Source: a virus. Taken from it: a DNA stretch of 64,000 nucleotides. The notes below the pieces were generated by a model. It worked only from the letters and a program-made list of their open reading frames with translations. It did not search any database and was not told where the DNA came from. The stretch is taken from positions 160,001 to 224,000 of IMG/VR virus record IMGVR_UViG_3300010224_000001; one strand, 5' to 3'. Shown one piece after another: positions 29,889 through 64,000 of this stretch. How positions within the stretch are numbered: the stretch's first letter is position 1; the number at the start of each line of letters is the position of its first letter. Position numbers and translations under genes: made by a program.

Positions 29889-29914
29889 TTTTTCTTATTC
29901 CTTTTTATTGGTAT

Positions 29915-30391: not shown

Positions 30392-31090
30392 TTAAAACAG
30401 GTAACGTAAGAGATTGATAAACGTTACATTCTTAGGACGGTACAAGTCACTGTACTTTGGAGTAAACGCCAGACTAATCGCATTATCGAGTTCTTTTTCG
30501 AAACCATCCCAGTAATTATCATCTGATGGAATGAAACCCTCTTTGACTTCCGGGAACAATGTTTCGATGACTTCTTGTTCAGTGCTGGTATCACTTGCAC
30601 CACTATCTGGCTTGTAACCATTTTTAACATGGATACCTTGATCGATTTCTTCTGCCTGCCTAGTGGGGATAGCACGTACAAAACGGAATAGACCATGCGG
30701 ATCAGCATCACCATCAAAATAGATACGGTCGGCCTTGAGCCAATTGGTAGGACACGAGTGTTCATTATAAAAGTAGCTCTTATCCAAATCCATGGCTTCG
30801 CCTTTCTTGACGAAATCCATACCTTCCACTACCACATACAGCGGTTTATCTTGAGGCGGTAGTACCAGCAATACCTCAAGCTTTTCAACACGTTTATAAT
30901 CCAAGAGCTTGATATCGATATCGGTAGCGGAGTTGATTACCAATTCGAAATAATTGCCGCACGCGTCGCAAGACCAAGGCCCTACCTCTTTTGGAAGTTT
31001 ATCTTCCAACAAGTGATCGATGTAACTGCCAGTATCTCCCTGGCAATGCGGACAAACGATGTAATGCTTGGTGTAGATTTGAGCTTTCAC
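30392..31090 (-). CDS. Zn-finger-containing phage protein
   Basis: CPHC...WSCDAC and HSCPTNW motifs. Confidence 0.7.
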   Translation of the reverse strand: MKAQIYTKHYIVCPHCQGDTGSYIDHLLEDKLPKEVGPWSCDACGNYFELVINSATDIDIKLLDYKRVEKLEVLLVLPPQDKPLYVVVEGMDFVKKGEAMDLDKSYFYNEHSCPTNWLKADRIYFDGDADPHGLFRFVRAIPTRQAEEIDQGIHVKNGYKPDSGASDTSTEQEVIETLFPEVKEGFIPSDDNYWDGFEKELDNAISLAFTPKYSDLYRPKNVTFINLLRYLF

Positions 31091-31207
31091 TTTTGTTATT
31101 CCTTATTATCGACTAGCGGAGTCACCCAATTACGTAGTTGGGTATTTTTAGAAATCAACGAGACGGCATAAAAGAGAGGGATTTCTCCCTCTCCTTATGA
31201 TGCTTTA

Positions 31208-39701: not shown

Positions 39702-40103
39702 TTATTCCCTTTCTTTACTAGTTTGGAAACGCTCCGGATATTGTTTAGCATAGCTATTATAGATAGCCAAACATTCCGCTTCCGTCGGACGACGAGGCGC
39801 ATCCCTTTCGAACAGCAGCCACATTGCTTGGGTGCGGCCACGTCGTTTATACCACTGCACCCAGAGTGTCATTGCTTCACCAACACCTGGAATTTGACAG
39901 ACGTTAATTGTCGAATAACGTTCATCGTTTTCCAAGTTCACCAGATGTACGTCACTGATATCTTCAAGTTCGGCAATATCACGAATCTTACCAACGGTAG
40001 CGCAGTTCCAGTTATCGGCATTGAAAAGCGCATCTTCGAAAGCACACTTGGGGTCAGTGCCGTTCCAGGGTTTACCGCGCTCAATACAAGCTTTGCATGG
40101 CAT
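39702..40103 (-). CDS. Cys-rich hypothetical protein
   Basis: CKAC...CAF...NWNCAT...WYKRRGRT. Confidence 0.7.
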   Translation of the reverse strand: MPCKACIERGKPWNGTDPKCAFEDALFNADNWNCATVGKIRDIAELEDISDVHLVNLENDERYSTINVCQIPGVGEAMTLWVQWYKRRGRTQAMWLLFERDAPRRPTEAECLAIYNSYAKQYPERFQTSKERE

Positions 40104-41347
40104 TATACTTCTCCTTTAAGTTCTCTAAGTAGTTTCTTAACAGCCGAAACACGAACAGCATGGATCGCGTCCTTAAGTTCTCGAACATTCGTCCTGGCTT
40201 TCTGCTGATACTTAACCGCCACGACACCTACTGCCACGCCGCGTGCGGCTGACATAGCTGTCCGGCAGTATTCGGCTTGTGGATAAGGACGATCTTTGAA
40301 CGACACCGTTCTACTAGCTCGACCTCGAGCATCGCACATTGCGGCATCAATGACTTTCAAGAAGCGTTCAGGACGGCGATAGATATCGCAACGTTCAAAC
40401 ATCTTCACCAAAGTAGCAACGCGAATGTCCATAGCCCTGTGAATGTTAAGATGCTCGCGAGAAGTCATTACGGCAATCTCCTCGCAATCCTTAGGAATAC
40501 GCATCCGTTCGCAAATAGCCTTAATCAACGGAACACCAGCTTCTTCATGACCGTGGTGACTTGGCCACTGATCTTCAGGTGTTACTCCTTTGCCAACATC
40601 ATGCATCAACACTGCAAAACGAGTTTCGAGATCATAACCCATTTCAGCAGCATAATTGAGAGAGAGTTCAATGTGTGCTCCTGTCCAAATCTCAGGATGA
40701 TGTTGTTCAGCTTGGGGCACATGCCAGAGTCGATCTAACTCTGGAAAGAAACCAGCCATCAAACCAAAAGCCGTCATCATGGTAAACATCCGTCCTGGTT
40801 TAACTTCCATCAAACCACGAGAAAATTCTTTCCAGATACGCTCCGGGTTAGCACCAACCAATCGATTCTCTAAGAACAACCTTCTCGATAACCAGAATGT
40901 GTCAGTGTCGATTTTAAAGTCAAGATATCGTGCATAGAACCTGCACAACCGAAACGTACGAATCGGGTCTTCTCTGAAGCTTTCTTCAGACACCATTCGC
41001 AGTACTTTGTTCTGAATGTCAGCGCGGCCGTTATGCGGGTCGATGTATTCACGGGTTTCCGGATCATACGCAATCGCATTAATCGTCAGATCACGCTTAG
41101 CCAGATCCTCTTCCAGTGTTACACTGGGATCGAAGGTGGCCACGCCGCCCTGACGTTCACGACGTGCTAGCGAATACTCTTCTTTTGTGAATGGATGCAG
41201 AAAGGTCGGGAAGTCTTTACCGACTTGAATGTAGCCGAGACTAATCATTACCTCAGCAGTAGTGCCTACTACGACCCAGTCTTTATCCTTGGGTGTAATT
41301 CCCATCAGCTGATCTCTTACAGCTCCACCTACTAAATAGACTTTCAT
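40103..41347 (-). CDS. cca: Multifunctional CCA-adding tRNA nucleotidyltransferase with HD domain
   Basis: VGGAVRD..DKDW, KRDLTINA, EDPIR, ERIWKE, HHPE, MHDVGKG. Confidence 0.92.
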   Translation of the reverse strand: MKVYLVGGAVRDQLMGITPKDKDWVVVGTTAEVMISLGYIQVGKDFPTFLHPFTKEEYSLARRERQGGVATFDPSVTLEEDLAKRDLTINAIAYDPETREYIDPHNGRADIQNKVLRMVSEESFREDPIRTFRLCRFYARYLDFKIDTDTFWLSRRLFLENRLVGANPERIWKEFSRGLMEVKPGRMFTMMTAFGLMAGFFPELDRLWHVPQAEQHHPEIWTGAHIELSLNYAAEMGYDLETRFAVLMHDVGKGVTPEDQWPSHHGHEEAGVPLIKAICERMRIPKDCEEIAVMTSREHLNIHRAMDIRVATLVKMFERCDIYRRPERFLKVIDAAMCDARGRASRTVSFKDRPYPQAEYCRTAMSAARGVAVGVVAVKYQQKARTNVRELKDAIHAVRVSAVKKLLRELKGEV

Positions 41348-49663: not shown

Positions 49664-50560
49664 TTAAACCTTTGGAGGAATCGGCGAAGCTGCTTGACCT
49701 TGGTATTTACCACCACGATCTTTATACGACACATCACAGTCTTCATCCGACTCGAAGAACAGCACCTGAGCGCAGCCTTCATTGGCGTAAATCTTAGCGG
49801 GCAACGGCGTCGTATTCGAGAACTCGAGTGTCACATAACCTTCCCATTCTGGTTCGAACGGCGTTACGTTAACGATGATACCGCAGCGCGCATAAGTCGA
49901 CTTACCCAGACACACAGTCAGAACATTTCGCGGAATGCGGAAGTATTCGACGGTACGGGCCAAAGCAAACGAATTCGGCGGAATGATGCAGACATCGCCT
50001 TTGAAATCGACAAAAGAATTGTTGTCGAAGTTCTTCGGATCAACGATGCAGCTATTAATGTTGGTGAAGATCTTGAATTCATCTGCACAGCGCACATCGT
50101 AGCCATACGACGAAGTACCATACGAGACGATCTTCGCATACAACCACAATTCACCATTTCGCATTTGCGCACCTTGCACATGCTCGCCGAGCTTAGCAGT
50201 CACCTCTTCATGCGTTGCGCCAGATAGTGCCAAACGTTCTTTATCTGTAGCTTTGCGCCAATCCCACCGCACCTGACCAGGTTCGAATGGTTCAATCATT
50301 GGCTTGAAACCATCGTCAACAGGTTCTGTCCGGATAATGGAGAACTTCTCTTTCTCAAAAGCTTCTTTACCCACAACCTGCTCGATCTCTTTATAGAAGA
50401 GTTCCGAACCAAACGGATTGTAGAGCGGTGTCGAAGTTTCTTTCTCTACGTGGCGAGTAGAACGCACATTATCGCGATGGCGAACATATGCTGTCGGTTT
50501 GGCGCTCATGCGCTTGATCCAGCGATCTGCCTTGATACCTGCGGTGGGTTTATCAAACAT
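49664..50560 (-). CDS. dcd: dCTP deaminase with two insertions
   Basis: [47 protein letters not shown]. Confidence 0.92.
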
Positions 50561-50596
50561 GGGAGCTTATTTCCTAGTTTTTAGTTGTTGATGAAA

Positions 50597-51160
50597 TTAG
50601 ACGTAAGTCTGCGAAAGGATCTTGGTTACCTGGAACAGTTCTGGTGAATTCTCAATACGCTCTTGCCGTTGCACGTAGATATTAACAGCGATCGTACTTT
50701 GATCAGCGCCCGCCATAGTTGTACCTGCAAAGATCATAAAGACATTTTGCAACTCAATCATGACCGTAGATTCTTCGACCAAATTAAGAATAGGCGTAGG
50801 GCTAAGTGAATCCTTGTACTCAGCACTACCGTTAAGAATGTCACGGATGATATCTACGTTTGCATTACTTACCTTTGTAGCGAATTCGGGGTCTACATAG
50901 AAACCCTTAAACTGTTCCATAGCGAGTTGCTCTACGCGGAACGCCAACTCGTAGTAAAGCTTCTTGAAGTGGGCAAGGAGTTTCTCATGCATAGACTCAT
51001 CTGTCTCTACATGAGTAAAGAAAAAGCGGTCGTGGTGATGTGCTTTGATCGAAGGGAACTGTGGGTTGTTCACAGCTTCCAGTTTCAGATTAGCCAAATC
51101 ATCAACTGTTTCTTTCGAAAGTTCTTTCGACAAAGCATCATAGTCTGCAAATGATTTCAT
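50597..51160 (-). CDS. Hypothetical protein (possible distant family B)
   Basis: LAMEQFKGFYV...IIRDILNG..EY. Confidence 0.65.
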   Translation of the reverse strand: MKSFADYDALSKELSKETVDDLANLKLEAVNNPQFPSIKAHHHDRFFFTHVETDESMHEKLLAHFKKLYYELAFRVEQLAMEQFKGFYVDPEFATKVSNANVDIIRDILNGSAEYKDSLSPTPILNLVEESTVMIELQNVFMIFAGTTMAGADQSTIAVNIYVQRQERIENSPELFQVTKILSQTYV

Positions 51161-51174
51161 ATCTGCATCCTTTT

Positions 51175-51639
51175 TTACATTGGAATATTGCCGTGCATCA
51201 GAAACTCGAATACAGCCTTGGATGCGTAGAAAAGAGAATGTTCATTACCATGCGTATAATCACGCGTCGTTTCGAACAATTCTTTACAATGCGGCAGAGG
51301 ACGGCGGAACATAACAGTGTAACGATTCTTAGCGTTAAGATGATCGATGTAAATCATCCGTTCACTCATTTCTTTCTCTATGCGGTCCGAGAATTTCCGT
51401 TCAACTGCCGTAAACTGACTGTAATCGAAGACAGGTTCCATTTTCACTACCATCACCATCACATCTTTGCGGTCGAGCGTGAAGGTAGGAATGTTCTCCG
51501 GAAAGAGTGCTAGGTTATAGTTTTTCTTTTGTGTGACAATGGGACGTATCAAATCACATACTGCGCCGATGAGTTCGACATGATGAGGTGCCGTATCCAT
51601 CAGACGTTTTGCTTCTTGTTGCGCTGCGATGTTATCCAT
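51175..51639 (-). CDS. Hypothetical protein
   Basis: ORF with RBS. Confidence 0.65.
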   Translation of the reverse strand: MDNIAAQQEAKRLMDTAPHHVELIGAVCDLIRPIVTQKKNYNLALFPENIPTFTLDRKDVMVMVVKMEPVFDYSQFTAVERKFSDRIEKEMSERMIYIDHLNAKNRYTVMFRRPLPHCKELFETTRDYTHGNEHSLFYASKAVFEFLMHGNIPM

Positions 51640-51699
51640 TCTTTATTCTTTCCTTCTATGATTGGAATAGCCTTTGTTAAGCTTGGACAGGCTTTATAT

Positions 51700-52194
51700 T
51701 TACAACGGGGTACTAACTAAATCAAACGTAACAATCTCGTGAATTCTGGTAACGATCATGCCGTCTCGTTCTACAAAACCACGCATACCAAAATGTAATG
51801 AGTTTATTTCGAGAAGCCTCTCAAAGAGTTTCGCATAAGGACCGCATGGAGTCGCATCACCTTTTACTACACCATCTTCTACACGGATATTCGTAATGTA
51901 GTGCGAGACATTGTCTTCGTGAATCTGCATAATGCGAGCTACTTGATGATGTAGTACGCCATTATTGCTATGCTTGACTCGAGCGTGTTTATCTTCACGA
52001 ACAATCGTATTGGTTTCACGGGTAGCTTTTATCGGTAGCGTTACGTGAGGCATTTGATGCTCACCCCGCAATAGGCCACGTTTTAACAAACGACCGAAGT
52101 TGAATGTCTTTACAGCTTCGGTATAATCGAGACCGGTCCTACTCGACACACCCGCCTTAAGCAGTTCAACAGTAATGAATTTCTTCTCTTCCAT
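51700..52194 (-). CDS. Degenerate prohead-protease (phiKZ gp175/T4 gp21-like) homolog
   Basis: LRGEHQMP...RIMQIHEDNVSHYI...TPCGPY...FGMRGF...IVTFDLVSTP. Confidence 0.6.
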   Translation of the reverse strand: MEEKKFITVELLKAGVSSRTGLDYTEAVKTFNFGRLLKRGLLRGEHQMPHVTLPIKATRETNTIVREDKHARVKHSNNGVLHHQVARIMQIHEDNVSHYITNIRVEDGVVKGDATPCGPYAKLFERLLEINSLHFGMRGFVERDGMIVTRIHEIVTFDLVSTPL

Positions 52195-52203
52195 GACCTA
52201 TCC

Positions 52204-52704
52204 TTATTCTGGCAAAATACCGGAGTGCATCCAGTTGAACGCATCTTTACCAGCATTGATATCCAGCTCACCGATGCCGTCACTGTAGTAATCATAAGTA
52301 CGGTGCGTGGCAAAATCAATCTTGCCCTCATGTTTACCCATGCAATGAAACCAGACGGTCAGTTTCTTTTCTTCTTGGTTGTCGCAGACGTAAACAACGC
52401 GCCGTGCCATGATCATACACCGTGCGGTATACTCATCGGAATCGAGCGTGATGATTACCTTGTGCGGATGCAGAGTTATGAATAAGCCAAGCGTATGTTC
52501 TTTTACGTTATCTGGTTTAGGAACATTGTCTAAAACCGAATGGATTGGTTCGAGACGATACGGTTCTTTAGCGCCGGTAACCGTAAAGGTAGCGTGTGTC
52601 TTTCCTACTTCAACTCCTAAACTCATTCCGAACTGATACATGACAGGACGGTTCATGAATTCTTGGGCGACTTCTTGAGATGCAGGGTGCGGTTTGGTGA
52701 ACAT
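52204..52704 (-). CDS. Hypothetical protein
   Basis: ORF in operon. Confidence 0.6.
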   Translation of the reverse strand: MFTKPHPASQEVAQEFMNRPVMYQFGMSLGVEVGKTHATFTVTGAKEPYRLEPIHSVLDNVPKPDNVKEHTLGLFITLHPHKVIITLDSDEYTARCMIMARRVVYVCDNQEEKKLTVWFHCMGKHEGKIDFATHRTYDYYSDGIGELDINAGKDAFNWMHSGILPE

Positions 52705-53009
52705 TCTTTCTTTTCCTTTACTCTATTTTTTACAACGTAACTATAGCTCATCGTGACTTGCCAAGGGAGAATGAAGTAATAGATCTGCTTAGCTTGATTT
52801 CTTATACCTTCCAAGTCTAAGCTCTCCCTCAGCTCGCGAGCTTTCATCAGAAACACAGTTAATGCCGCTTTCGCAATTGCAAACTCTTTGTCTGGCAGAT
52901 ATTCTTTATGTTCTTTTAACTGCTCGATATACCAGGCATAAATCTTGTAATACAAGTTATCCACTTCACGTTCTTCATCTAACGTGAGTATTTTCTTCAA
53001 ATTACCCAT
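52653..53009 (-). CDS. Hypothetical protein
   Basis: First gene after an early promoter. Confidence 0.55.
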   Translation of the reverse strand: MGNLKKILTLDEEREVDNLYYKIYAWYIEQLKEHKEYLPDKEFAIAKAALTVFLMKARELRESLDLEGIRNQAKQIYYFILPWQVTMSYSYVVKNRVKEKKECSPNRTLHLKKSPKNS

Positions 53010-53062
53010 GTATGATTCCTGCCTTGGACTTCGAAAGAAGATAGTGCACTATCCTCACCAAG

Positions 53063-53079
53063 GTTATATAGGTCCAAAA
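53063..53079 (-). promoter_or_regulatory. Putative early promoter
   Basis: TTTTGGACCTATATAAC on the minus strand, after a terminator. Confidence 0.5.
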
Positions 53080-53152
53080 TTATTTACTACTTTACACATT
53101 TGAAGAGACAAAAAAAAGAGAGGGGTGTTACCCCCTCTCAAAGGCTCTCACA

Positions 53153-53422
53153 TCACACATCAAACTTGCCAGTACTATTACTTTTATCTATTGCTCTTTC
53201 GATAGAGGCGTCAATTCCTGCAGAGACTGCAAGATGAAGAAGATGGTTTAACTCTTCTTCGGAAAATAGGTAAACAGGCTTTCGCGATGAACCGACCTTC
53301 ATCTTACTCAGCTTAGACGCACTAGCTTCATGCTTCTTGAGACTATATTGCCCTTTCAATATAGCAAGAGCCGAAATACGGAGCGCGTACTCGTGGTCGT
53401 AAGTGGGGTCGTGGCTACTCAT
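53153..53422 (-). CDS. Hypothetical protein
   Basis: ORF. Confidence 0.55.
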   Translation of the reverse strand: MSSHDPTYDHEYALRISALAILKGQYSLKKHEASASKLSKMKVGSSRKPVYLFSEEELNHLLHLAVSAGIDASIERAIDKSNSTGKFDV

Positions 53423-53447
53423 GTTAACACCTATTTATAGACGGTTA

Positions 53448-53681
53448 TCAAAGAGGATTACCAGAGATATCACACTGTGCTGCTTCTGCTGCTTTCGCGA
53501 GTCGTTCTGCCCAGACTTTAGCATTTTCATCAGCAGCCCGCGGACCTTGTGAGTCTGCGAGAAGGTTATAGAAAGTGCCGCCTCGCTGATACTTCTTTGA
53601 CGTAGGGTAGACGAGCAGCATCAAGTGCTGCCGACGACGCATAATCATTTCTTGCTGCTTTTGCTCTTCAGTTTCGGACAT
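53448..53681 (-). CDS. Hypothetical protein
   Basis: ORF. Confidence 0.55.
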   Translation of the reverse strand: MSETEEQKQQEMIMRRRQHLMLLVYPTSKKYQRGGTFYNLLADSQGPRAADENAKVWAERLAKAAEAAQCDISGNPL

Positions 53682-53794
53682 GATGTTCTCTTTCTGATTT
53701 CACTACCAGCTTTGGACAAATGATCAGCTGAGACTACACTGACATAATAAACAGACTAGCTACGATATTCGTAGCTAGTCTGGTGTTATTGTTA

Positions 53795-54160
53795 TTAAGG
53801 TTTATTGGCTTTGGAAGTAGCTACGTAAGTCTTCCAGATAGCGTCAACTGCTTCTATATCGAGATGCAGTGTTTCTTTTTCGGAGATCTGTTTCATGTTT
53901 TGCATCACACGTTTCAGATACTGCTTCACACTGATGAACATGTGAACAAAGTCCTTTTGGGAGTGTTCTTCTTTGTACGGTACGTTTTCAAACTTCACCG
54001 TAAAGTAAACATCACGCAGGACTTTCGGTTTCTGACGAGAAAACTGACTGATCTGACCACTTATCACAACACCTGCTTTACCAGCACAGCCATCCTTTGG
54101 CGCTTCCAAAGGTTCTTGCGAAGTAGTAATGTGAGTACGTTCGTTTGCTAAGGCTTCCAT
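53795..54160 (-). CDS. Hypothetical protein
   Basis: AAGGA RBS. Confidence 0.6.
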   Translation of the reverse strand: MEALANERTHITTSQEPLEAPKDGCAGKAGVVISGQISQFSRQKPKVLRDVYFTVKFENVPYKEEHSQKDFVHMFISVKQYLKRVMQNMKQISEKETLHLDIEAVDAIWKTYVATSKANKP

Positions 54161-54174
54161 CTTTATCCTTTTCG

Positions 54175-54717
54175 TTAAAACGTAGTTGGGAAATGATCAG
54201 CTCGAGTCACTACATCAAACGTCTCTGTAGGATGATCATGATCAGACATGAATTTGTTTCGTAAAGCGACAGCTTCATCGAATGTCAACCAGAGCGCGTC
54301 ATTCCGATGACCGAATATGCCATCAACCCTCAAGTAACACAGCTCCATTGGGTAATACAGCAGATAACGATGGCTTTGTTCCCAGTCGTGTGCTGCTGCC
54401 CACAGTTCATCTTCAACCCAAGCAATGCCTTGTTGAAGCAGGTGAAGATTAGCAGGAGGCACGCTAAGTGCTTTGGAAATTGCATGACGCACTTCACGAT
54501 AGAGATATGAACGATCGGAATAACCGCTACGAGAAATGATCACTTTCTGGAAACATACTCCGTATTCGCACTCCCGGTTACCTTGGTCATCATGCAGATA
54601 AAGCTTACTCCAATAAGAAAACTTGGTATCAGCTTTATCTTTCGCATCTGGAGTTACATCATCAAAAACCTTTACTTTGATTTGAGCATGCTGAATACCA
54701 GCGTTGGTGGGCGCCAT
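54175..54717 (-). CDS. Hypothetical protein
   Basis: ORF coupled to the upstream gene. Confidence 0.6.
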   Translation of the reverse strand: MAPTNAGIQHAQIKVKVFDDVTPDAKDKADTKFSYWSKLYLHDDQGNRECEYGVCFQKVIISRSGYSDRSYLYREVRHAISKALSVPPANLHLLQQGIAWVEDELWAAAHDWEQSHRYLLYYPMELCYLRVDGIFGHRNDALWLTFDEAVALRNKFMSDHDHPTETFDVVTRADHFPTTF

Positions 54718-55055
54718 TATTCTTTACCTTTCTCGACAGGAGCAGTGCGCAAATTAACCGCAACGAAGTCGACATTATCCACATACTTACCGAACTCTTT
54801 GATGGTGTAAGCACTCCAGATATCGGCTTCGTTGATGTCGTCTGTCCAAATGGGACGATAAGTGGCTACAAACGCGATCTGTTCCTTGACTTCTTCGATA
54901 GTCGGATTCTTAGCTTTCATCCAGCCTTGTTCACCCCAAATCCATTTCAGGATATTCAAGGTGTACAGCTTCGTCTCTTTGTGACGTGCGACAAAGATCG
55001 AAGAACGATTCGATTCATTATCGAGAATCTGCTGCTCTTTCTCATTAAGACTCAT
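54717..55055 (-). CDS. Hypothetical protein
   Basis: ORF in operon. Confidence 0.6.
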   Translation of the reverse strand: MSLNEKEQQILDNESNRSSIFVARHKETKLYTLNILKWIWGEQGWMKAKNPTIEEVKEQIAFVATYRPIWTDDINEADIWSAYTIKEFGKYVDNVDFVAVNLRTAPVEKGKE

Positions 55056-55069
55056 ACTCTCTATTTCCT

Positions 55070-55879
55070 TTATTCTTGATTATTAAATTTCAAATCAGTG
55101 AGCATTAACGAAGTGTTTGGCATCAAATCGTAAAAGTTACCGTCGAGTACATCGTAAATACGAGTCTGTAACTGATCATGGTCGAGCATACCACACAGCT
55201 TATTCACACCACGCTCCCACCACAACAAACTTCGAATTGCAAAGTTGTAGGAGCTTTTACCCAGCACAGTACAAGTACCAGAACATGCCGAAGTCATCAT
55301 CTCACGATGCCTTTGACTGGATGGGTCGTTACGAAACGCCGTAAAGGTCAGGTAGTTACCCAGATTAAGCTTGAGGTTATACGTCGGTTCACTACCCGCA
55401 GTATTCACAAACAAAGTACACTGCTTGCCTTCTTTGTCGTTTTGATACTCAACCATGCGAATCAACGAATTCCAGATAGAGTCTGCGTCATCCACATTGT
55501 CTTTACTGGAAGAAGACGTTTCTTGATTCTGTTTGGCCTGGCGAGCCATACGAGGCGAAGGCGGTAGCACAACCAACGGAAAAGCACGACCGTTGTTGAC
55601 TAACGTATTGGCCTGCATGATTTGATTAATGATGCTGTTATAAAAATAACGACGAACAGTATTACGATCCATTCGTTTGACATCACGGTCTTTAATTTCA
55701 TACTGCATGTAAAAGATCACGTGACGCTCAGCAACGTTATCAAACATCACGACAGACGTATGGGGGATACAATCAACGTCAGTCATGGTGCGTGGTGTCG
55801 GTGGCTGTAAGAACTTTACAGTAACGAATGGAAGTTCCAGCGGTTCAGGAATCCTGATGTTATTTGAATACGTCTTCAT
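55070..55879 (-). CDS. Hypothetical protein (paralog family E)
   Basis: LELPFVT...IWNSL...LNLGNY. Confidence 0.7.
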   Translation of the reverse strand: MKTYSNNIRIPEPLELPFVTVKFLQPPTPRTMTDVDCIPHTSVVMFDNVAERHVIFYMQYEIKDRDVKRMDRNTVRRYFYNSIINQIMQANTLVNNGRAFPLVVLPPSPRMARQAKQNQETSSSSKDNVDDADSIWNSLIRMVEYQNDKEGKQCTLFVNTAGSEPTYNLKLNLGNYLTFTAFRNDPSSQRHREMMTSACSGTCTVLGKSSYNFAIRSLLWWERGVNKLCGMLDHDQLQTRIYDVLDGNFYDLMPNTSLMLTDLKFNNQE

Positions 55880-55911
55880 GTATGCAAATTTCTTCTCTTG
55901 GTTATTGATTT

Positions 55912-56643
55912 TTAATAGGAGAATCGATAGATCTGTTTGATCTTCGGTTTGCCGCTTACGTCGATTTCAGCTAAGCTTAAACCATATTCACCATCCTTTC
56001 TAGCCTCCTCCATAAAGGCACCAGTATCCATGTAGACATGGTTACCGATCTGTGTAACAAAACGACTGATACGGTGACCTACGAACGAAAGAGAAAGACC
56101 TGCATGTTTCTCATGACTCACCCTTCGTTCAAAGAGTTCTTTACCCCATTGCAGTGAAAGTGGAACACGGCGATCTTTCACGTTAATGAGTTCATCCAAC
56201 TGAGTATCCGAACCATGGAACTCAGCATGGAATACGTTAAAGCGTCGTTCGCCCTCACCCACTACAATTACGATGGGAAGTTCAAACAACTTCTTCACAT
56301 ACTCCATGCGTTTCGCTCTTGGCATCTCTTCAGCCCAGCTACCGCCATGAATAATCCAGTTATCCCAGTTAAAGGCAATCCGTGGATCACATGAATCAAT
56401 GAAGATTTCCTCGTGATTACCGGCAGTGCTACGCACCCAGTCTTCGTCGAGCAAACCAAAGCATTTCTCCGATTGCGGTCCACGATCACCTAAATCGCCA
56501 GGTAGATAAAGAATGTCTTTCTCTTTATCAAAGTTGACACGATCGAGCAGTGTTTCTAATTGATGATAACAGCCATGCAAATCGCCAGCGACAAAGGTAC
56601 GCCCTTTGTCGTTATGCGGGTAGTACTTAATAACAGGAACCAC
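55912..56643 (-). CDS. Calcineurin-like Ser/Thr phosphatase (lambda NinI/PphA-like metallophosphoesterase)
   Basis: GDLHG, GDLGDRG, GNHE, VGH, DTGA; GTG start after AAGGA. Confidence 0.88.
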   Translation of the reverse strand: MVPVIKYYPHNDKGRTFVAGDLHGCYHQLETLLDRVNFDKEKDILYLPGDLGDRGPQSEKCFGLLDEDWVRSTAGNHEEIFIDSCDPRIAFNWDNWIIHGGSWAEEMPRAKRMEYVKKLFELPIVIVVGEGERRFNVFHAEFHGSDTQLDELINVKDRRVPLSLQWGKELFERRVSHEKHAGLSLSFVGHRISRFVTQIGNHVYMDTGAFMEEARKDGEYGLSLAEIDVSGKPKIKQIYRFSY

Positions 56644-56659
56644 TTTATTCCTTTCTTTG

Positions 56660-58069
56660 TTAAGGTAGCGATGCGAACGCCGTGTCGATTTCACGGGCCA
56701 TATGGTCCAGATAGCTGAGGTCTGGCGCGATGACCGGGGGAAACAGCGAGTTAGCAAACGTTGGAACAAGATAATGGCGAGCATCTTCACAATCCCACTC
56801 CATTGTAAACTGGCTGTTGCCAAACAGATCAAAACGACCTACCAGTGTAAGATTGATTGCGTTGCGGTGCGTGAGCATCGAGAAAACACGGTTTTCGATT
56901 TCTTCTTCGAAAGCTTTAATGTCTTCTTCTTTCACGAAGTCATCTACCCCGGCAGTGCCGATAACGTTAACACCAGTCTGTCCGTAGATATTGCTACCGT
57001 TAAAGTCCACTACTCGGATGCCATACTTCGCCATAATAGCCGGGACGCTATGTGCAATCGCACTAGCTGCTACCGTAGCTGCATCGCTACCTCCCCAGGA
57101 TTCATACTGCACGTCAGGGTTGCTCTGAGGAGTTACGTTGATATGGCAAACATTAAGTGCATTCGGATCCATGACACGCAGATCGTCCAACTTAATGTTG
57201 TTGATTGCCACGCCATTTTTAATCATAGCGAGTGCGCGCATAACGGGATTTTGCGTAACTGGCCGATCCATTACAAACCTTCTCAACGTCTCGATGTAAT
57301 GCATGGAATGACGATTCTTTACTTCACCAGCCGATTCCATTTGGATTGTTGCAGAGACATCAGTACTTACAATGGTTTGTAACCAGCTGCTCATATCTAC
57401 ATATTCGTAATCAGAAAACACAGGCGTGGCGACATGCGTTGTACGAAGATCCACAGTAGTCACACCGGCGACATTAAGCATTGGATCAGTAACAGAGGAC
57501 ATGCGAGCAAATACATCCATCGGACGAGTCCGTTGCATATTTGGCTTATCGACACCCACGTAATCAGGGTTCGCCAAAACCTGATAACCCTTGATGAGCT
57601 TCTCAGTACCATTCGGAGTGAGATACGAACGTACTTCAAAGATCGAATTGATCGTAAGGATCGTTTCTGGATCAAACAGAGCACCTTCTTTGTTTTCCCA
57701 AGGGCGATCAGTGTAACCGGAAACATAGTACTTGAACGGTCTTTTCGCGCCTGCGATCATACCTTCAATCTCGGCAACGAAACAAGCTACATCCATATCC
57801 CAGCTTTCGCCAGTTGCGGTAGGAAGTTTAACCGGATTACCGATGGAGCTAACATGAATCAGTCCTTCGATATACGGAATAGTGATACTGCTCGGGGTTT
57901 CTTCCGGACTATGCTTGCTATGTTCAGCAATCGCTTGATTGAGAAGCTGAAACTTCGGCAGAGTATCACTGTTGATGTTGGTGACGAAAGTGCGCAGGAA
58001 TTGCTGCTGATGTTTACCTCCAGCCATGAACTCAATGCTATTGATTTTGAATTGTACATTGTTCAGCAT
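56660..58069 (-). CDS. Divergent phiKZ gp69 (PicA/Imp1)-like protein
   Basis: Recalled family pattern: YYVSGYTD..FDP..LTINS, RPMDVF, QNPVMRAL, WGGSD..TVAAS.IA..VP.IM..GI..V.F..SN, DLFG, PTFANSLFPPVI; length ~470 aa. Confidence 0.55.
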   Translation of the reverse strand: MLNNVQFKINSIEFMAGGKHQQQFLRTFVTNINSDTLPKFQLLNQAIAEHSKHSPEETPSSITIPYIEGLIHVSSIGNPVKLPTATGESWDMDVACFVAEIEGMIAGAKRPFKYYVSGYTDRPWENKEGALFDPETILTINSIFEVRSYLTPNGTEKLIKGYQVLANPDYVGVDKPNMQRTRPMDVFARMSSVTDPMLNVAGVTTVDLRTTHVATPVFSDYEYVDMSSWLQTIVSTDVSATIQMESAGEVKNRHSMHYIETLRRFVMDRPVTQNPVMRALAMIKNGVAINNIKLDDLRVMDPNALNVCHINVTPQSNPDVQYESWGGSDAATVAASAIAHSVPAIMAKYGIRVVDFNGSNIYGQTGVNVIGTAGVDDFVKEEDIKAFEEEIENRVFSMLTHRNAINLTLVGRFDLFGNSQFTMEWDCEDARHYLVPTFANSLFPPVIAPDLSYLDHMAREIDTAFASLP

Positions 58070-58136
58070 GATGATTTTTCCTTTGACGTGAGCGTAAAAT
58101 TGGAATGATTAATTATTTGTTTTTCTTGTTACTTCT

Positions 58137-58940
58137 TTATTTAATACAATTGCCTGACCCATCTGGTTGATCGCGTGTTTCTTTAAATAATTCATCCATT
58201 GGATCATCGAGCATTTGAGTTTCAATAACTCGATCTAAAAAACCTGTAGCTGGGTTAGATAGAATCTTTTTAACTACTACACCCTTTACTTCTGATCTTT
58301 CCCACGCTCTACCGTAAAGAAGATAGTGGTCGCCGTTATTTACAAGTTTGAACTTAACATTATTGCGATCATCAGGTGAGATTACTTGCCCCAACAAGGT
58401 CACCATTTCTAATGCCTCTTGCCGAAAATGACAGCCAGTCATATCGGTACTGATCTGTTTAATCTTTAGCATTAAATGCTTAAAGTTCATAGTTAGTTCG
58501 AACTTAAAACTTTCAAGACGCGGCTTATCTTGATTTCGAATGGCTAAGACAATTTCACTTTCTTCTTTACCATAAAGTAGATTGTTAACCCACTTGTTAT
58601 CCATCTTTTCAAGAATGTCATCCCAATCTTTGTAACCAAGAGCAGCAGCTACTCGATCGTAAACAAACTGGCGACCTACGGCCTTCTCACCCATGATCCG
58701 TGGGATATCCATGAATAGAGTCCAGATATCCTGTTTCAATTCACGAATAGAAAGCCCTGGTTTATTCGTTATATTGAGAATACGACGTTCAATCCAGTTA
58801 TGTGGCTCTGGTTCTGGTAGATAACCTTTTTGATTATTAGCAGATTCAAAAGCTTCCTTATGCTCTTTGAGATTTTCTGAACGCCGTTTTACTGTCAAAG
58901 TCTTACGCGGTTGTTGCGTAGGAAGAGACTTGATTTCCAT
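58137..58940 (-). CDS. Hypothetical protein
   Basis: AAGGAG RBS; VAAALGYKDW motif. Confidence 0.65.
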   Translation of the reverse strand: MEIKSLPTQQPRKTLTVKRRSENLKEHKEAFESANNQKGYLPEPEPHNWIERRILNITNKPGLSIRELKQDIWTLFMDIPRIMGEKAVGRQFVYDRVAAALGYKDWDDILEKMDNKWVNNLLYGKEESEIVLAIRNQDKPRLESFKFELTMNFKHLMLKIKQISTDMTGCHFRQEALEMVTLLGQVISPDDRNNVKFKLVNNGDHYLLYGRAWERSEVKGVVVKKILSNPATGFLDRVIETQMLDDPMDELFKETRDQPDGSGNCIK

Positions 58941-58995
58941 TTCATGATTCTCCTTTCGTTATTGATTATTAGTTTTTATCCAACTTGAACAGGTT

Positions 58996-59388
58996 TTAAG
59001 CTTTTGGCACTACTACTAATTCACCGTAACGTGGCGCGTTCATTATTTCGGCGATCTTATCGGTGTGTTCAGCCAAACAAACGGCCGGAATATGCAGATC
59101 AGTACCATCTTTCCTGTTCACTAAACCTAGAGAATTGACTATCAGGTCCTTCATTAGGAAAAAGATACCTTCCACATGGGTAGGTAATGCGAGATCGACT
59201 TTGAATGGCGCATCTCTATCATTACCAGGCTCAGCATTAACGACAATAGTTTCGATGCTCGCCAGACCATTTCCATCGTCTACCAAGGTAAAGTATTCTG
59301 TTTTTAAACCGACGATCTGTACGCCTATATGAACACTATTATGTTTTGCAATCTCGTCGATGAAGCTTTGACTAATGAACATTATCAT
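58996..59388 (-). CDS. Hypothetical protein
   Basis: ORF. Confidence 0.6.
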   Translation of the reverse strand: MIMFISQSFIDEIAKHNSVHIGVQIVGLKTEYFTLVDDGNGLASIETIVVNAEPGNDRDAPFKVDLALPTHVEGIFFLMKDLIVNSLGLVNRKDGTDLHIPAVCLAEHTDKIAEIMNAPRYGELVVVPKA

Positions 59389-59401
59389 TCCTTTTTTATG
59401 T

Positions 59402-59653
59402 TTAGAGAGGTTTTAGACCTTCTTCCTCAATGAACTTCACCAAACCGAAGAAGTCCCAGATCGGTTCTTTATCTTTAAAGATAATGACGAAACCATTAAC
59501 CGGACTGACATTACCCTTCGACAACTTCATCACTTTCTCACGACTCAAATAAGTCGTAGTCTTTATGCCGCAATGGACCAAGATAGCACGACATGCGGTG
59601 AGATTATCAGACGGAAAGTAATTTTCATCAGTAACAAATATTTCTGCTTTCAT
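59402..59653 (-). CDS. Small hypothetical protein (glutaredoxin-like size and pattern, no CxxC)
   Basis: ORF. Confidence 0.5.
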   Translation of the reverse strand: MKAEIFVTDENYFPSDNLTACRAILVHCGIKTTTYLSREKVMKLSKGNVSPVNGFVIIFKDKEPIWDFFGLVKFIEEEGLKPL

Positions 59654-60148
59654 TTATCCTCCGTAAATGTCTTTAGATCCAGCCAGCCATTGTTCAAATT
59701 CTTCTTTCTTTCCACTGCTTTTCACCCATTCAACTTGACGAGGCGTGATGTCGTTAGAAAGCACCATGGCATTGAATACTGCAAGGCGCTTCTTATCCGA
59801 CGAAAGAATCTGATCAAACTTTTCACTGTCTTCCACCTTGGTGAGTTGACCGTGAATCATCAAAGAGAATTCCTCGAAGAACTTGGTGTCCATGTAGTTG
59901 ATCGCAAATATTTCGCAGATCTTCTTAAGAGCAGTATAGACTTCAGTACCAGCTACCATGGCTTTTTCTAAAGCAGGGTTGTTCTTATTACCTAGCAACT
60001 TACTGATTACTTCCGGAGGAATGTTTTTAGGACCGCCGTATTTCCATTTGTAGAAAGCAAAGCGGATACTAAACCAAATGTTACTAATGTCTCGAGCTAG
60101 ATTACTAACATTCATCTGGAATGTATAAACAAGTTGCTTGATGATCAT
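59654..60148 (-). CDS. Hypothetical protein
   Basis: ORF. Confidence 0.6.
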   Translation of the reverse strand: MIIKQLVYTFQMNVSNLARDISNIWFSIRFAFYKWKYGGPKNIPPEVISKLLGNKNNPALEKAMVAGTEVYTALKKICEIFAINYMDTKFFEEFSLMIHGQLTKVEDSEKFDQILSSDKKRLAVFNAMVLSNDITPRQVEWVKSSGKKEEFEQWLAGSKDIYGG

Positions 60149-60164
60149 GATTAGACTTTCTTTA

Positions 60165-60638
60165 TTAGTGCCGCTTCACGCGTCCAAACTTTTGCAGTAG
60201 AACAAGTTCCAACTTCGTATTGAGAGCAGGGGATTTTGATTGTTTACGAAATTTATGGATCGTTTCCTTGCTTAGTTTAAAGCTAATCGGATGCGGGCGC
60301 GCCGGAATATAGATCGATGCAAAGATCTTCGATTCCGTCGGTAAGAAGTATGGTTTGACATACATACGCACACCCATGGACGTACAGTGGCTCCACCAGT
60401 CATCGAACATCTTGTAATTGATGATTTTAACGTCCATATACGGAATGAAATTTTCAAGCATCATCGAGTAGAGCGACTTGCCGGAATTATACAACGTATC
60501 TTCGACCTTGACCGATGAACGAGCACCAATATTAGCGGAGCGCATCAAACGTTCAACACTAATGTGATGTGGAACGCTATGATATTTTGCAGAGATAACT
60601 GCTCCGCTACATTCATGAAAAGCACTGGTATTATTCAT
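60165..60638 (-). CDS. Hypothetical protein
   Basis: Start reassigned to MNNTS. Confidence 0.6.
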   Translation of the reverse strand: MNNTSAFHECSGAVISAKYHSVPHHISVERLMRSANIGARSSVKVEDTLYNSGKSLYSMMLENFIPYMDVKIINYKMFDDWWSHCTSMGVRMYVKPYFLPTESKIFASIYIPARPHPISFKLSKETIHKFRKQSKSPALNTKLELVLLQKFGRVKRH

Positions 60639-61473
60639 CCTTATTCTCCTTGTCAATTGCAACGATAGGAACGGCACCATTAAAGATGACGTCAACTCGG
60701 TTGGTTACCTTATCGAAAACCGGCATGGCAAAGTCGCCTTGAAATTCATAGACGATGTTGCGACGTAGTTTCAGATCAGGATTAGTTCTTGCGTGGTGTT
60801 TCTCAGGCAGCTTTTCAATCTCAGCAAACGTGTACGGTGTTTCAACAACACGCCGCTGAATAAAAGTACCACGTTTAAAGAAGGCCGGATAGTGGTTCCA
60901 GTTGATGCCTTTTTCCATCAACATATCCAAACGCTCTTTACCGTTCTTACCCAACACTTGCTTATGGCTGTAGTATGCGGTCGCTGCCATGCTAATACTG
61001 TTCTTCGTAGCATCACGCTCACGCCACAGGAAGTTATTTGCTGCTTCTTCCAGATTTGGTAAATTGAATGCGCGGCAATCAAACGCAGGACGCTTATGTT
61101 TGTACTCAGGCAGACGCTCCGCGACAATCTCGTTAAAGATTACGGAAGCTTTAGCTGCAAGAGCTGTATTCATTTTCAGAATACGACCATCGAACCACAC
61201 TTGACTTTTGAGACTATCAGAATACCATGCCAGAGTAATTTCATCGCTTTGGGTATAAGCGCATACCGCATGCGTCTCTTCCAACAAACGTTTGGCGGTC
61301 TCAATCATGGCATACGACATAAGCGGATCATACGGTCGCTTCATGCCACGGGTGAACTTGCTGAAACCCATCCCATCCAAACGTGCCACGATCGGAAGCA
61401 GTGGCATAAAACGGCGATCAGATTCGACGTTTTCATACATCTTCATGCGATCGCCGAGTGCGTCTTTACTCAT
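60631..61473 (-). CDS. thg1: tRNA(His) guanylyltransferase Thg1-like 3'-5' polymerase
   Basis: LGDRMK.YE, RLDGMGFSKFT, YTQSDEITL, FDCR, WRERDATKNSI, FKRG. Confidence 0.9.
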   Translation of the reverse strand: MSKDALGDRMKMYENVESDRRFMPLLPIVARLDGMGFSKFTRGMKRPYDPLMSYAMIETAKRLLEETHAVCAYTQSDEITLAWYSDSLKSQVWFDGRILKMNTALAAKASVIFNEIVAERLPEYKHKRPAFDCRAFNLPNLEEAANNFLWRERDATKNSISMAATAYYSHKQVLGKNGKERLDMLMEKGINWNHYPAFFKRGTFIQRRVVETPYTFAEIEKLPEKHHARTNPDLKLRRNIVYEFQGDFAMPVFDKVTNRVDVIFNGAVPIVAIDKENKDE

Positions 61474-61478
61474 TATTG

Positions 61479-61649
61479 TTATTCCTTAGGTTTCTTAGTT
61501 TTGGTGTGAGTCAGAGTCATAGCTTGATAAAAGTTTTCACCATCTTTTATGATAGTGTCGTGTAACTTCCATCCAGCATTTAACTTTGCGTTAACCTTTT
61601 GTTCTAGATAACGTAGACTAGCTGCTTCAATTATTTTGAACGTAACCAT
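61479..61649 (-). CDS. Small DUF1737-like protein (56 aa, not in ORF track)
   Basis: MVTFKIIEAASLRYLEQKVNAKLNAGWKL...FYQAM. Confidence 0.55.
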   Translation of the reverse strand: MVTFKIIEAASLRYLEQKVNAKLNAGWKLHDTIIKDGENFYQAMTLTHTKTKKPKE

Positions 61650-61969
61650 TAGTTAACCAGATCCCGTTCTTTCTCAGCTTCGTAGAACTTCTTCAGTTGA
61701 TCATCATCAAGTGGTTCGAGCCAATCGTCGGCGCAAGTTGCATTGTTGCTTTCACGGAAGGTATGGCTTTGCATGTCAGGAGAAGTGATCTTCACTCGGA
61801 ACTGAGAGCCGTCGATTGCTTCTACATCCCACATGTCGCCCCAGACCACATGGTCGGGAGGATCAGCACGATCTCTTACCTTGACAATCTTACCGACAGA
61901 ACTCCCAGTGGGTCCTACCGACGAACCAATGATTCTGCAGATAACACCTGGTTCTACTTTCTTAGCCAT
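61649..61969 (-). CDS. Hypothetical protein
   Basis: MAKKVEPG...GKIVKV...D.WLEPL. Confidence 0.65.
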   Translation of the reverse strand: MAKKVEPGVICRIIGSSVGPTGSSVGKIVKVRDRADPPDHVVWGDMWDVEAIDGSQFRVKITSPDMQSHTFRESNNATCADDWLEPLDDDQLKKFYEAEKERDLVN

Positions 61970-62046
61970 AATGCTTTCCTTATTTTCTATTAGAAATGAC
62001 AACAACAGAGAGGACGTAGTGTCCTCTCCTTTATGACGTTTATTGA

Positions 62047-62886
62047 TTACACGAGCTGGTGTTCGTTACCCGGACGTTTGAATTCATCGTCGAAACGAAT
62101 ATCAGAAATCACATTCGGGAGAACTGCTTCGCCCATGAATGCGAAGTTCTTCTTAACTGCGTTGATGATTTCTTTCTTCATCACATCACGCGATACCCAG
62201 TTAGCCAGATCAATAGGGGTGTCGTGGTGCAGAGTAAAACGACTGTCGGAACGAGCCACAACAAAGCGACTCTTCTTACCGAACATGTAAAACTCGCCGG
62301 TCATACCCCAGGCCATCGGGTTAGTGTAGTAATGAAGATTGCAATTCTCTTCCTCGTCTGTGGAGGAGTAGAAGCTAAGGCTCTTACCGAGAACGATATT
62401 CAGATTAACATTGTCGGGAGTGCCCATCATGTTAAAGTTAGAGATACGTTCGTAACGATGGCGGCCGCCCATGCTGTAGATGGAATGGAGAATCTGACCG
62501 CACCATTCACCGATTGCACGGAAAGTTTCACGCTCAACATCTTCTTTGGTGAGACCTTGTGCATTATTAAAGGCACGCAGCTTACTACCGTGGATATTCG
62601 TGACTTGACGCTCGACATTGATCCCGAGTACATCCTTAGCGTATTTGCTGATCATTTCGTGCAGCTTTTCACCCATGACTGCCGTGACATTATCGTGGTT
62701 ATCCGTCAGAGGTTGCTTATTAGTGAAGGCGATGTAGAACTTGATGTCTTGACCGGTGTCTTTATTGTAATAATTGACATGGTGGTCCGGAAGGTCAGCC
62801 AAGCTTTCAGTCGTTTTAACTGTCGGTTCGGCGATCAGATGGAGGGTGATGTACGGGAGAACCAGAGTGTCGAGAATGGTTTGCAT
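62047..62886 (-). CDS. Hypothetical protein (paralog family E)
   Basis: LVLPYIT...ILHSI...IVLGKS. Confidence 0.7.
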   Translation of the reverse strand: MQTILDTLVLPYITLHLIAEPTVKTTESLADLPDHHVNYYNKDTGQDIKFYIAFTNKQPLTDNHDNVTAVMGEKLHEMISKYAKDVLGINVERQVTNIHGSKLRAFNNAQGLTKEDVERETFRAIGEWCGQILHSIYSMGGRHRYERISNFNMMGTPDNVNLNIVLGKSLSFYSSTDEEENCNLHYYTNPMAWGMTGEFYMFGKKSRFVVARSDSRFTLHHDTPIDLANWVSRDVMKKEIINAVKKNFAFMGEAVLPNVISDIRFDDEFKRPGNEHQLV

Positions 62887-62918
62887 GATGAATTTCCTTT
62901 TCTATTGATGTGATTGAA

Positions 62919-63221
62919 TTACAGGTTTTCGATTTTTGCTTTTATGTCTTTGATTTCTGAACGTAAATTAAATTGCTGTTTTGCCATCGCAGCGGCCGGA
63001 GTATCTTTGAGTTCAAGCACCGCGTTCGCGAGTTCGGTTAATGTAATGCCTAACACTCTCACTAGAGCATCCGCGGTGATAAAGTCAAGATTTAACTTAG
63101 CATTCTCAATGCGACTAACTGTATAACCTGGCAGATTAGCTGATAGCGACAAAGCCTGAGCTGTCAATTTACGTTTTTGGCGTAACTTGCGTAGCGCCAA
63201 ACCTACTACAACTGAGTCCAT
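62919..63221 (-). CDS. XRE-family HTH protein
   Basis: LRKLRQKRKLTAQALS...VSRIENAK. Confidence 0.8.
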   Translation of the reverse strand: MDSVVVGLALRKLRQKRKLTAQALSLSANLPGYTVSRIENAKLNLDFITADALVRVLGITLTELANAVLELKDTPAAAMAKQQFNLRSEIKDIKAKIENL

Positions 63222-63230
63222 GACCTAACC

Positions 63231-63905
63231 TTAGTTGTTCTTACTGAAATGCTTCAGATAAAGGTCAGCAGCCTTCATCCAATCGTTCCACTTCTTTTGA
63301 TGGCCTTCAGTCATTTTAATGCTGACATTCTCAGCACCGATTTTACGACTTATCAGCAGGTGAGACAACCAGTGGATCAAACGACCAGCCATCGATTGCT
63401 CGGGAATACCGAGTTCTTTTTGCAGCAGGTAGTTAAGATGGAAGACGTCAATATTCCACAACTCTTTTACCTTAGGCATTGGGATCGTGTCGTAATTCGG
63501 AAACTCACGAATCTTTGCCATGTCTCGCATATACCGCACGAGTTTATACGGCGTGTCCAACATGCGGATGTCACGATGTCCATTAATGTAAGCAAACACC
63601 GAACGATCAGGATCGTCAGACTCCAAATCACAGATACGAATTGGAGCGCGAGCACCCATCTGGTTAAGCATACGCGCATGAGCAATGCTGTACTCTACCG
63701 GCAGCACATTGTAGGCGATGTCAGACAAGACTTCCAGCAGGCTGAAGTTTTCCAGTTCGACGGCAGACACACGTGCCGTATCATTTTCAAACGAACTAGC
63801 ATACATCTGTTTACGAGATGCAGGCGCACAACCACCATACGCAAAAGGGTTTAAGCCATTTGTCACATTGAGTTCTGAATAATGCTGATTTGGTTCATGT
63901 TTCAT
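63231..63905 (-). CDS. Hypothetical protein with nvRNAP beta (gp71/73) N-terminus-like leader
   Basis: NQHYSEL...GLNPF...ASRKQMYAS. Confidence 0.65.
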   Translation of the reverse strand: MKHEPNQHYSELNVTNGLNPFAYGGCAPASRKQMYASSFENDTARVSAVELENFSLLEVLSDIAYNVLPVEYSIAHARMLNQMGARAPIRICDLESDDPDRSVFAYINGHRDIRMLDTPYKLVRYMRDMAKIREFPNYDTIPMPKVKELWNIDVFHLNYLLQKELGIPEQSMAGRLIHWLSHLLISRKIGAENVSIKMTEGHQKKWNDWMKAADLYLKHFSKNN

Positions 63906-64000
63906 TGTCTTCTCCTTTATTAGCCATCATCTTTCTCGCGCACCAAGGCTTGAAAGTATTCTTGATTAAGTCGAGGGAAACCAGCGCGGTCATTATCCAC

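Follow-up and report, generated by a model that had tools for sequence, protein, structure and literature searches.

The gene and its signals

The window analysed here comprises 64,000 nucleotides (bases 160001-224000) of the virus record IMGVR_UViG_3300010224_000001 (hereafter G000), which is complete at 322,570 bp and bears direct terminal repeats. Positions 56660-58069 of the window hold an open reading frame (ORF) of 469 codons, here called Imp1b, which had been described from its sequence as a diverged relative of phiKZ gp69, the protein known as PicA or Imp1. PicA/Imp1 has been described as an essential, single-copy core gene whose product, associated with the nuclear shell, chooses which folded proteins enter the phage nucleus; here and below, statements on published work refer to the available parts of the papers.

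Inspection of the ORF showed that it was real and intact. It lies on the minus strand, which the original prediction had not given, with its ATG at 58069 and its stop at 56660; the reading frame of the opposite, plus strand is riddled with stops. The string AAAGGAAAAATCATC, directly 5' of the ATG, would act as a Shine-Dalgarno site, and a near-identical string precedes the ATG of a second chimallin gene in the same genome. Seven motifs had been quoted for the protein, and all of them were located in the translation: SGYTD at residues 117-121, WGGSDAATVAASAIA at residues 325-339, and RPMD, NPVMRAL, FNGSN, DLFG and PTFANSL. The counts of sigma-70-like promoters and terminators between 55000 and 60000 were below or within the expectation from shuffled sequence. 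By megablast, positions 50000-64000 showed no near-identical DNA in cultured phages.

Family membership by sequence and predicted fold

In a scan against PHROG, the sole match of Imp1b was phrog_3141 (E 6.1e-41, residues 5-463). This profile scored 598 bits with phiKZ gp69 (PHIKZ069), 462 bits with RSF1 ORF218, 290 bits with FLC9 gp373, 237-240 bits with the canonical copy of G000 and 140-142 bits with Imp1b. By BLASTP, Imp1b could also be aligned directly with phiKZ gp69 (E 6e-15, 32% identity), over the C-terminal 133 residues only. A tblastn search of 50,697 phage records with Imp1b gave matches in 12, all jumbo phages of Ralstonia, Burkholderia or Vibrio, and each record matched at a single place with at least 84% of the query covered. 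The match in RSF1 was the gene adjoining those for the beta and beta-prime subunits of RNA polymerase (RNAP).

An AlphaFold2 model of Imp1b, for which six subfamily sequences served as input, had a predicted local distance difference test score (pLDDT) of 70.8 and a predicted template modelling score (pTM) of 0.78. The fold comparison that the original prediction had called for was made with Foldseek in BFVD, and similarity to models of the gp69 family was found. All 15 matches at E ≤ 0.001 were phage proteins of 482-567 aa, with E values from 8.9e-28 to 1.1e-17 and template modelling (TM) scores of 0.64-0.75; the seven that were named all came from jumbo phages. The next match had an E value of 1.6e-3 and a TM score of 0.17. 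The best match was RSF1 ORF218, itself a member of phrog_3141. The profile match, the BLASTP alignment and the 15 family models bear out the assignment to the gp69 family. As judged from sequence and predicted model, the resemblance is not due to chance, and Imp1b is a homolog of phiKZ gp69 (PicA/Imp1). UniProt lists one gp69-family protein in BFVD, A0A1L7N194 of Ralstonia phage RP12 (TM 0.71 with the Imp1b model), as 'Major capsid protein', which is probably a mis-annotation.

Pfam contains no gp69 family, and Imp1b, the canonical copy of its own genome and phiKZ gp69 were all without a Pfam match; the hit of ASFV_J13L at E 0.67 was discarded as a sub-threshold chance match. Among solved structures, no sequence match was obtained with the subfamily profile or with phiKZ gp69. 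Foldseek of the Imp1b model against the PDB gave no match at E ≤ 0.001, and with VIA-align the top Z among 48,161 chains was 6.4 (95 residues), which is inside the background stated for the tool. Because the sequence and fold searches of the PDB gave nothing above background, no mechanistic clue could be drawn from the fold, and the available text of 10.1101/2024.03.27.586873 states the same. An identity as the gp68-like subunit of the non-virion RNA polymerase (phrog_3209) was considered and rejected, since the PHROG scan yielded phrog_3141 only. The gp68-like gene of G000 lies elsewhere, as a 470-aa ORF at genome positions 29032-30444 (phrog_3209, 274 bits) that was also reached by BLASTP from phiKZ gp68.

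Two PicA/Imp1 genes in one genome

It was found that G000 contains two phrog_3141 genes, at 27461-28927 (237 bits) and at 216675-218057 (140 bits), the latter being Imp1b. A search for a canonical gp69 beside gp68, also called for in the original prediction, found it at genome positions 27398-29014 within a block like phiKZ gp65-gp75. The order of this block is SbcD-like, phrog_3229, phrog_3284, phrog_3209, phrog_3141, phrog_3520, a small gene on the opposite strand, RNAP beta, RNAP beta-prime and helicase; it is collinear with phiKZ gp65-gp75 and also with RSF1 and FLC9. The phiKZ proteins with homologs in G000 by BLASTP were gp50, gp54, gp55, gp59, gp65-gp71 and gp73-gp75.

Imp1b lies 188 kb from the canonical gene. 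The two products were aligned by BLASTP with an E value of 5e-36 and 26% identity, residues 6-460 of Imp1b against 30-508 of the canonical copy, so that the alignment is full-length. The terminal tails of the canonical copy (∼29 aa N-terminal and ∼30 aa C-terminal) are absent from Imp1b. The model of the canonical copy had a pLDDT of 63 and a pTM of 0.59, with low confidence in both tails; the tails aside, the order of secondary-structure elements was the same in the two models. Because the gp68-gp70 core position is held by the other copy, Imp1b is a true paralog, not an ortholog, of canonical PicA/Imp1. It had been allowed that Imp1b might lack structural similarity to gp69 or be the only gp69 homolog of its genome; neither is the case, because the model has a gp69-like fold and the genome holds a second, canonical copy.

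A small, full-length subfamily

Five relatives of Imp1b (P0002-P0006, with 51, 39, 29, 29 and 31% identity) were recovered from 5.8 billion proteins by a word-indexed search, and with every one of them the canonical copy scored lower than Imp1b. When 1.84 billion representatives were searched with the subfamily profile, 1399 matches had E ≤ 0.001. Nine of these scored between 257 and 717 bits, after which the scores dropped to 195 bits and formed a continuum. A scan of IMG/VR with the Imp1b protein alone found no relatives. These sequence searches place Imp1b in a small subfamily of about 12 clusters from the same phage lineage.

In a FastTree tree of 159 rows, the Imp1b subfamily formed a clade of 13 rows with a support of 100. 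The same clade of 13 rows was recovered with a support of 100 by IQ-TREE (LG+C20, short search) from 57 rows, a hand-picked subset that took in every paralog, every canonical copy of the lineage, 24 further rows and 12 rows from retrieved loci. A clade of 12 rows (support 99) comprised the canonical copies of this lineage. The paralog and lineage-canonical clades are sisters, and together (25 rows) they were split from the 32 other canonical copies with a Shimodaira-Hasegawa-like approximate likelihood ratio (SH-aLRT) value of 96. The family tree has no outgroup and is hence unrooted. A duplication basal to the lineage would account for its topology, as would an older one that was then lost elsewhere; the former is more parsimonious.

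The 12 members of the subfamily are 456-567 aa long, all of them full length, with 23 invariant columns. Most of the 46 columns that are at least 80% conserved in 146 canonical rows were kept in the 12 paralogs, and from these retained columns Imp1b would appear to be under purifying selection. Several changes were fixed in all 12 paralogs: R to Y221, Y to W229, D to N440 and the deletion of one G. At V94, the paralogs have V, L or M where 95% of the canonical rows have R. That Imp1b is a decaying or neutral duplicate without function is a reading already disfavoured, and it is highly improbable. Imp1b is indeed shorter than the canonical copy, scores lower with the profile (140 vs 237 bits) and lies in a fast-evolving arm of the genome; but it has a full-length frame, a strong ribosome-binding site and a confident model (pTM 0.78), the 12 distinct full-length members of its subfamily share the invariant columns, and it is syntenic in three phages while its neighbours turn over.

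The single-copy state of other import genes bears on another alternative. Imp1 is reported to form puncta on the nuclear shell, to bind Imp6 (gp67) and to license the import of specific cargo (PMC11087766, 10.1101/2024.03.27.586873). G000 encodes one Imp6/gp67-like protein (genome positions 30835-31677) and one Imp3/gp59-like protein. Imp1b could therefore be a modulating subunit that co-assembles with canonical Imp1 and/or the Imp6-like protein at the same punctum and tunes or widens its specificity, which we regard as possible but rather unlikely. Most of the family-conserved core residues are kept, and published work describes genetic interference of a foreign Imp1 homolog with the resident system, under which dominant mutations in imp1 are selected. 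However, the reported complex contains two gp67 to one Imp1, with no sign of Imp1 homo-oligomers in the available text, and the missing tails and subfamily-fixed substitutions could equally abolish the shared contacts.

A separate observation concerned P0003 and P0006, two of the 12 members, whose C-termini are extended by ∼90 aa and share the conserved motif KYNP..GDGEHP..GYWDW. A stretch 48-49% identical to this extension is encoded separately in G001, one of the related genomes described below, just downstream of Imp1b (L044 about 215-385, -). This suggests that the extension is a partner domain, either fused or split off. The extension has no counterpart in G000 and no Pfam match.

A conserved second locus in a fluid arm

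Two phrog_3141 copies were also found in G001 (IMG/VR, 226 kb, 83% complete) and in G009 (IMG/VR, 271 kb, terminal repeats, 100% complete). The complete genomes of phiKZ, RSF1 and FLC9 have one copy each (at E ≤ 1), as does G012 (279 kb, complete). Another 12 fragmentary records (10-82% complete) have one copy each and are uninformative. The canonical copy matched 150 cultured-phage records, in every case at one place. P0156 represents a relative with a canonical copy at 87% identity, for which no Imp1b locus was recovered.

The arm of the genome that carries Imp1b is collinear across G000 (216-305 kb), G001 (1-60 kb) and G009 (170-210 kb), and similar neighbours were found on the metagenome contig L033. 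The word 'displaced', which had been applied to the gene, is thus misleading, since the second locus is itself conserved. The reported absence of gp68 and gp70-74 from its surroundings was confirmed, none of them being among the 10 flanking ORFs. In a PHROG scan, 8 of these 10 had no PHROG, and the others encode a metallophosphatase and a Thg1-like enzyme. A conserved operon partner was sought by tblastn (E ≤ 1e-3), and 0 of 12 ORFs flanking Imp1b matched the arms of G001, G009 or L033. Because none of these 12 immediate neighbours has a homolog in the other arms, Imp1b appears to have been retained in a fluid region.

When G001 and G009 were compared, the canonical copies were 52% identical and the Imp1b copies 28%, with a path ratio of 4.2.

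A second chimallin in the same genomes

BLASTP with phiKZ gp54 matched two ORFs of G000, the canonical chimallin and a second, chimallin-like ORF outside the window (Table 1). The second one reached 26.8 bits with the Pfam chimallin family, for which the cut-off is 27, and an E value of 1.9e-4 with the chimallin 7SQQ of the PDB. Identity between the two proteins is 19%, and the second falls short of the canonical one at either end. The same pair occurs in G001. G009 has a second chimallin ORF of 561 aa (E 9.1e-12 with the subfamily profile), which was missed by phrog_4795 at E ≤ 0.01 and detected by the subfamily profile only. One chimallin each was found in phiKZ, RSF1, FLC9 and G012. A second chimallin was thus present in 3/3 genomes with Imp1b (G000, G001 and G009) and in 0/4 complete genomes without it, and it lies in the same collinear arm as Imp1b. 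In the G001-G009 comparison, identity is 58% for the canonical chimallins and 25% for the second copies. A scan of IMG/VR with the second-chimallin alignment found no relatives. As in G000, G001 and G009, a second chimallin of low similarity has been described in a nucleus-forming phage known from a metagenome ('variant G3', PMC12625630); the available text of that paper mentions no second PicA/Imp1 and does not link the two duplications.

These results demonstrated that Imp1b is a full-length, intact and faster-diverging paralog that is kept at a conserved second locus and co-occurs with a second chimallin. Because of the co-occurrence (3/3 vs 0/4), the shared arm and the same rate excess between G001 and G009, Imp1b and the shorter second chimallin might be a co-evolving pair that builds a second, specialised gate in the nuclear shell with its own cargo, distinct from the canonical Imp1 punctum and fast-changing because hosts or rival phages would contest it. 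We consider such a paired gate conceivable, with the chances clearly against it.

That Imp1b co-occurs with a second chimallin of reduced length at either end could also be accommodated by a shell-associated role outside import, for example a site for capsid docking or RNA export built with that chimallin, and the chemistry of the family is not constrained by any solved fold. This role is very doubtful: import licensing is the only function demonstrated for the family in the available text of PMC11087766 and 10.1101/2024.03.27.586873, and the ORFs flanking Imp1b include no gene for packaging or RNA binding.

A 358-aa AAA ATPase gene adjoins the second chimallin in 3/3 genomes (G000, G001 and G009), with varying gene order. 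It was considered as a specific partner of the second chimallin and rejected, as FLC9, which has no second chimallin, encodes a homolog with 47% identity, and phiKZ a partial one. Two genes from the second chimallin lies the gene for a protein that combines a Tad2-like domain with a fragment of a phiKZ-type major capsid protein.

Imp1b might instead be a weapon against co-infecting chimalliviruses or a counter to host factors, a look-alike that blocks or hijacks the import of a rival or shields its own. Its divergence in the G001-G009 pair, much faster than that of the canonical copy, is in line with this, as are the similar behaviour of the second chimallin (25% vs 58%) and the Tad2-like anti-defence domain encoded in the same fluid accessory arm; according to the available text of reviews, import selectivity keeps out the products of co-infecting phages. 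Yet the same locus is kept across phages whose canonical copies are only ∼30% identical, which is unusual for a pure conflict gene, and no Imp1-sensing defence system was found in the available published work on phage-nucleus import. The weapon reading is accordingly judged improbable.

Specificity sites and proposed role of Imp1b

The import-specificity substitutions known for PicA in phiKZ gp69 include H365Q, which shuts out GFPmut1, H366P and T367P (PMC11087766), and cargo specificity is reported to be set by surface residues of Imp1 (PMC11087766, 10.1101/2024.03.27.586873). Residues W325-T332 of Imp1b (WGGSDAAT), the best-conserved motif of the family, align to W360-T367 of phiKZ gp69 (WGGADHHT), so that A330, A331 and T332 stand at the sites of H365, H366 and T367. 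The threonine at T367 is kept in 129 of 146 canonical rows and in 8 of 12 paralogs. Imp1b thus keeps the motif in which the known PicA substitutions fall, with different flanking residues. Eight other published sites (G88, R90, I226, A270, Q297, H300, R306 and E310) are variable in canonical copies and paralogs.

Imp1b is best read, tentatively and at somewhat less than an even chance, as a functional second member of the PicA/Imp1 family whose likeliest role is that of a second factor for import specificity, with cargo surfaces of its own. In such a role, Imp1b would sit at the chimallin shell like Imp1 and would license folded proteins through recognition of surface patches. Its different binding surfaces would select a different set of cargo, one that probably changes rapidly and is particular to the lineage. 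The diverged second chimallin of every Imp1b genome examined may be its working partner. The alternative gate, the altered cargo specificity and the decoy for host defences that the original prediction had offered are functional proposals of this kind; for the decoy role, no support was found in the analysis of sequence and literature.

Several observations weigh against a second specificity factor. The sites of cargo-specific Imp1 mutations vary among canonical copies too, so the paralog is not singled out by them. Because the Imp6-like and Imp3-like genes are single-copy, G000 does not encode a complete second import machine. When G001 and G009 were compared with G000, both the canonical and the Imp1b copies were ∼29-32% identical, with path ratios of 1.2-1.25, so that the rate excess of Imp1b is clear in one of the three genome pairs only. 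The arm as a whole is fast-evolving: 21 of 87 called ORFs in the G009 arm have a detectable match in G001, and Imp1b (28.3%) is the third lowest of these 21, close to neighbours at 28-29%. The co-occurrence of Imp1b with the second chimallin was found in one lineage and counts as a single evolutionary observation, which may reflect shared ancestry rather than a functional link. Positions 55900-59000 of the window were found in no sequencing run recorded as RNA; the five runs that did match, none of them RNA, had 0.05-0.12 of the sampled words.

Compared with PicA/Imp1, Imp1b shares the family by profile, pairwise alignment and predicted fold, keeps the W-G-G-x-D-x-x-T motif and is co-encoded with ChmA (the canonical chimallin) and with Imp3-like and Imp6-like genes. 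Unlike PicA/Imp1, it stands outside the gp68-gp70 block with no gp67/Imp6 gene nearby, and G000, G001 and G009 hold two copies where a single one has been described. It also differs from the canonical copies in the loss of the terminal tails, in the subfamily-fixed substitutions at conserved columns and in its faster divergence. In the literature on Imp1/PicA duplication and chimallin paralogs, supplements aside, no report of a second PicA/Imp1 was found. None appears in the available text of PMC11087766, 10.1101/2024.03.27.586873, PMC13573597, 10.1101/2025.11.23.690004 and 10.64898/2025.12.19.695335, or in that of PMC12625630, 10.64898/2026.09.21.753271, PMC12908238 and PMC13282480. The available text of the two founding papers (PMC11087766 and 10.1101/2024.03.27.586873) does not contain the words 'paralog' or 'duplicat'.

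How PicA/Imp1 recognizes cargo and how proteins pass through the chimallin lattice are given as open questions in the available published work. Import control may have been diversified by gene duplication, and a natural, diverged second copy offers a comparison, in which shared surfaces should mark contacts with the shell or partners and differing surfaces the choice of cargo. From cargo sets specific to each copy, it could be learned whether gates of more than one kind exist in the phage nucleus. If functional, the pairing with the second chimallin would indicate that minor shell components organise such gates. The phage that carries Imp1b is uncultured.

Neighbouring genes

Coordinates of the features are given in Table 1. 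The metallophosphatase gene that follows Imp1b in the same orientation has a GTG start 19 nt after the Imp1b stop, and from this arrangement the two genes are probably co-transcribed. In other phages, the phosphatase gene does not adjoin Imp1b.

Table 1. Positions of Imp1b, its sequence elements and related or neighbouring genes in the window and elsewhere in G000
Feature	Position	Strand	Evidence or remark
Imp1b (469 aa, PicA/Imp1 paralog, phrog_3141)	window 56660..58069	-	ORF, profile, BLASTP, AlphaFold2 model
Ribosome-binding region of Imp1b, AAAGGAAAAATCATC	window 58070..58084	-	directly 5' of ATG
Codons for W325-T332 (WGGSDAAT), best-conserved family motif	window 57076..57099	-	computed from ORF start 58069
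NinI-like/calcineurin-like metallophosphatase	window 55912-56640	-	phrog_246 E 1.2e-45, PF00149
Thg1-like tRNA-His guanylyltransferase	window 60631-61473	-	phrog_4717
dCTP deaminase-like gene	window 49664-50560	-	phrog_1663
tRNA nucleotidyltransferase	window 40103-41347	-	phrog_2244
AAA ATPase, 416 aa	window 23779-25029	-	phrog_2376, PF00004
Canonical Imp1 of G000	genome 27398-29014		538-aa ORF between gp68-like (phrog_3209) and gp70-like (phrog_3520) genes
Canonical chimallin of G000	genome 37226-39160		phrog_4795 285 bits, Pfam PF25677 146 bits
AAA ATPase, 358 aa	genome 263597-264673 (L024:5598-6674), outside window	-	PF00004 E 2.5e-10
Second chimallin-like ORF, 566 aa	genome 264737-266437 (L024:6738-8438), outside window	-	phrog_4795 E 3.7e-22
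Tad2-like domain (PF11195) and fragment of phiKZ-type major capsid protein (PF25620), 289 aa	genome 267147-268016 (L024:9148-10017), outside window	-

The genes for the Thg1-like enzyme, the tRNA nucleotidyltransferase and the dCTP deaminase-like protein lie in the same accessory arm as Imp1b. A homolog of the 416-aa AAA ATPase was found directly upstream of the Imp1b gene on the metagenome contig L033 (8433-9740, then 9986-11689). This ATPase is also present in the same arm of G001, and the arm of G009 contains two copies.

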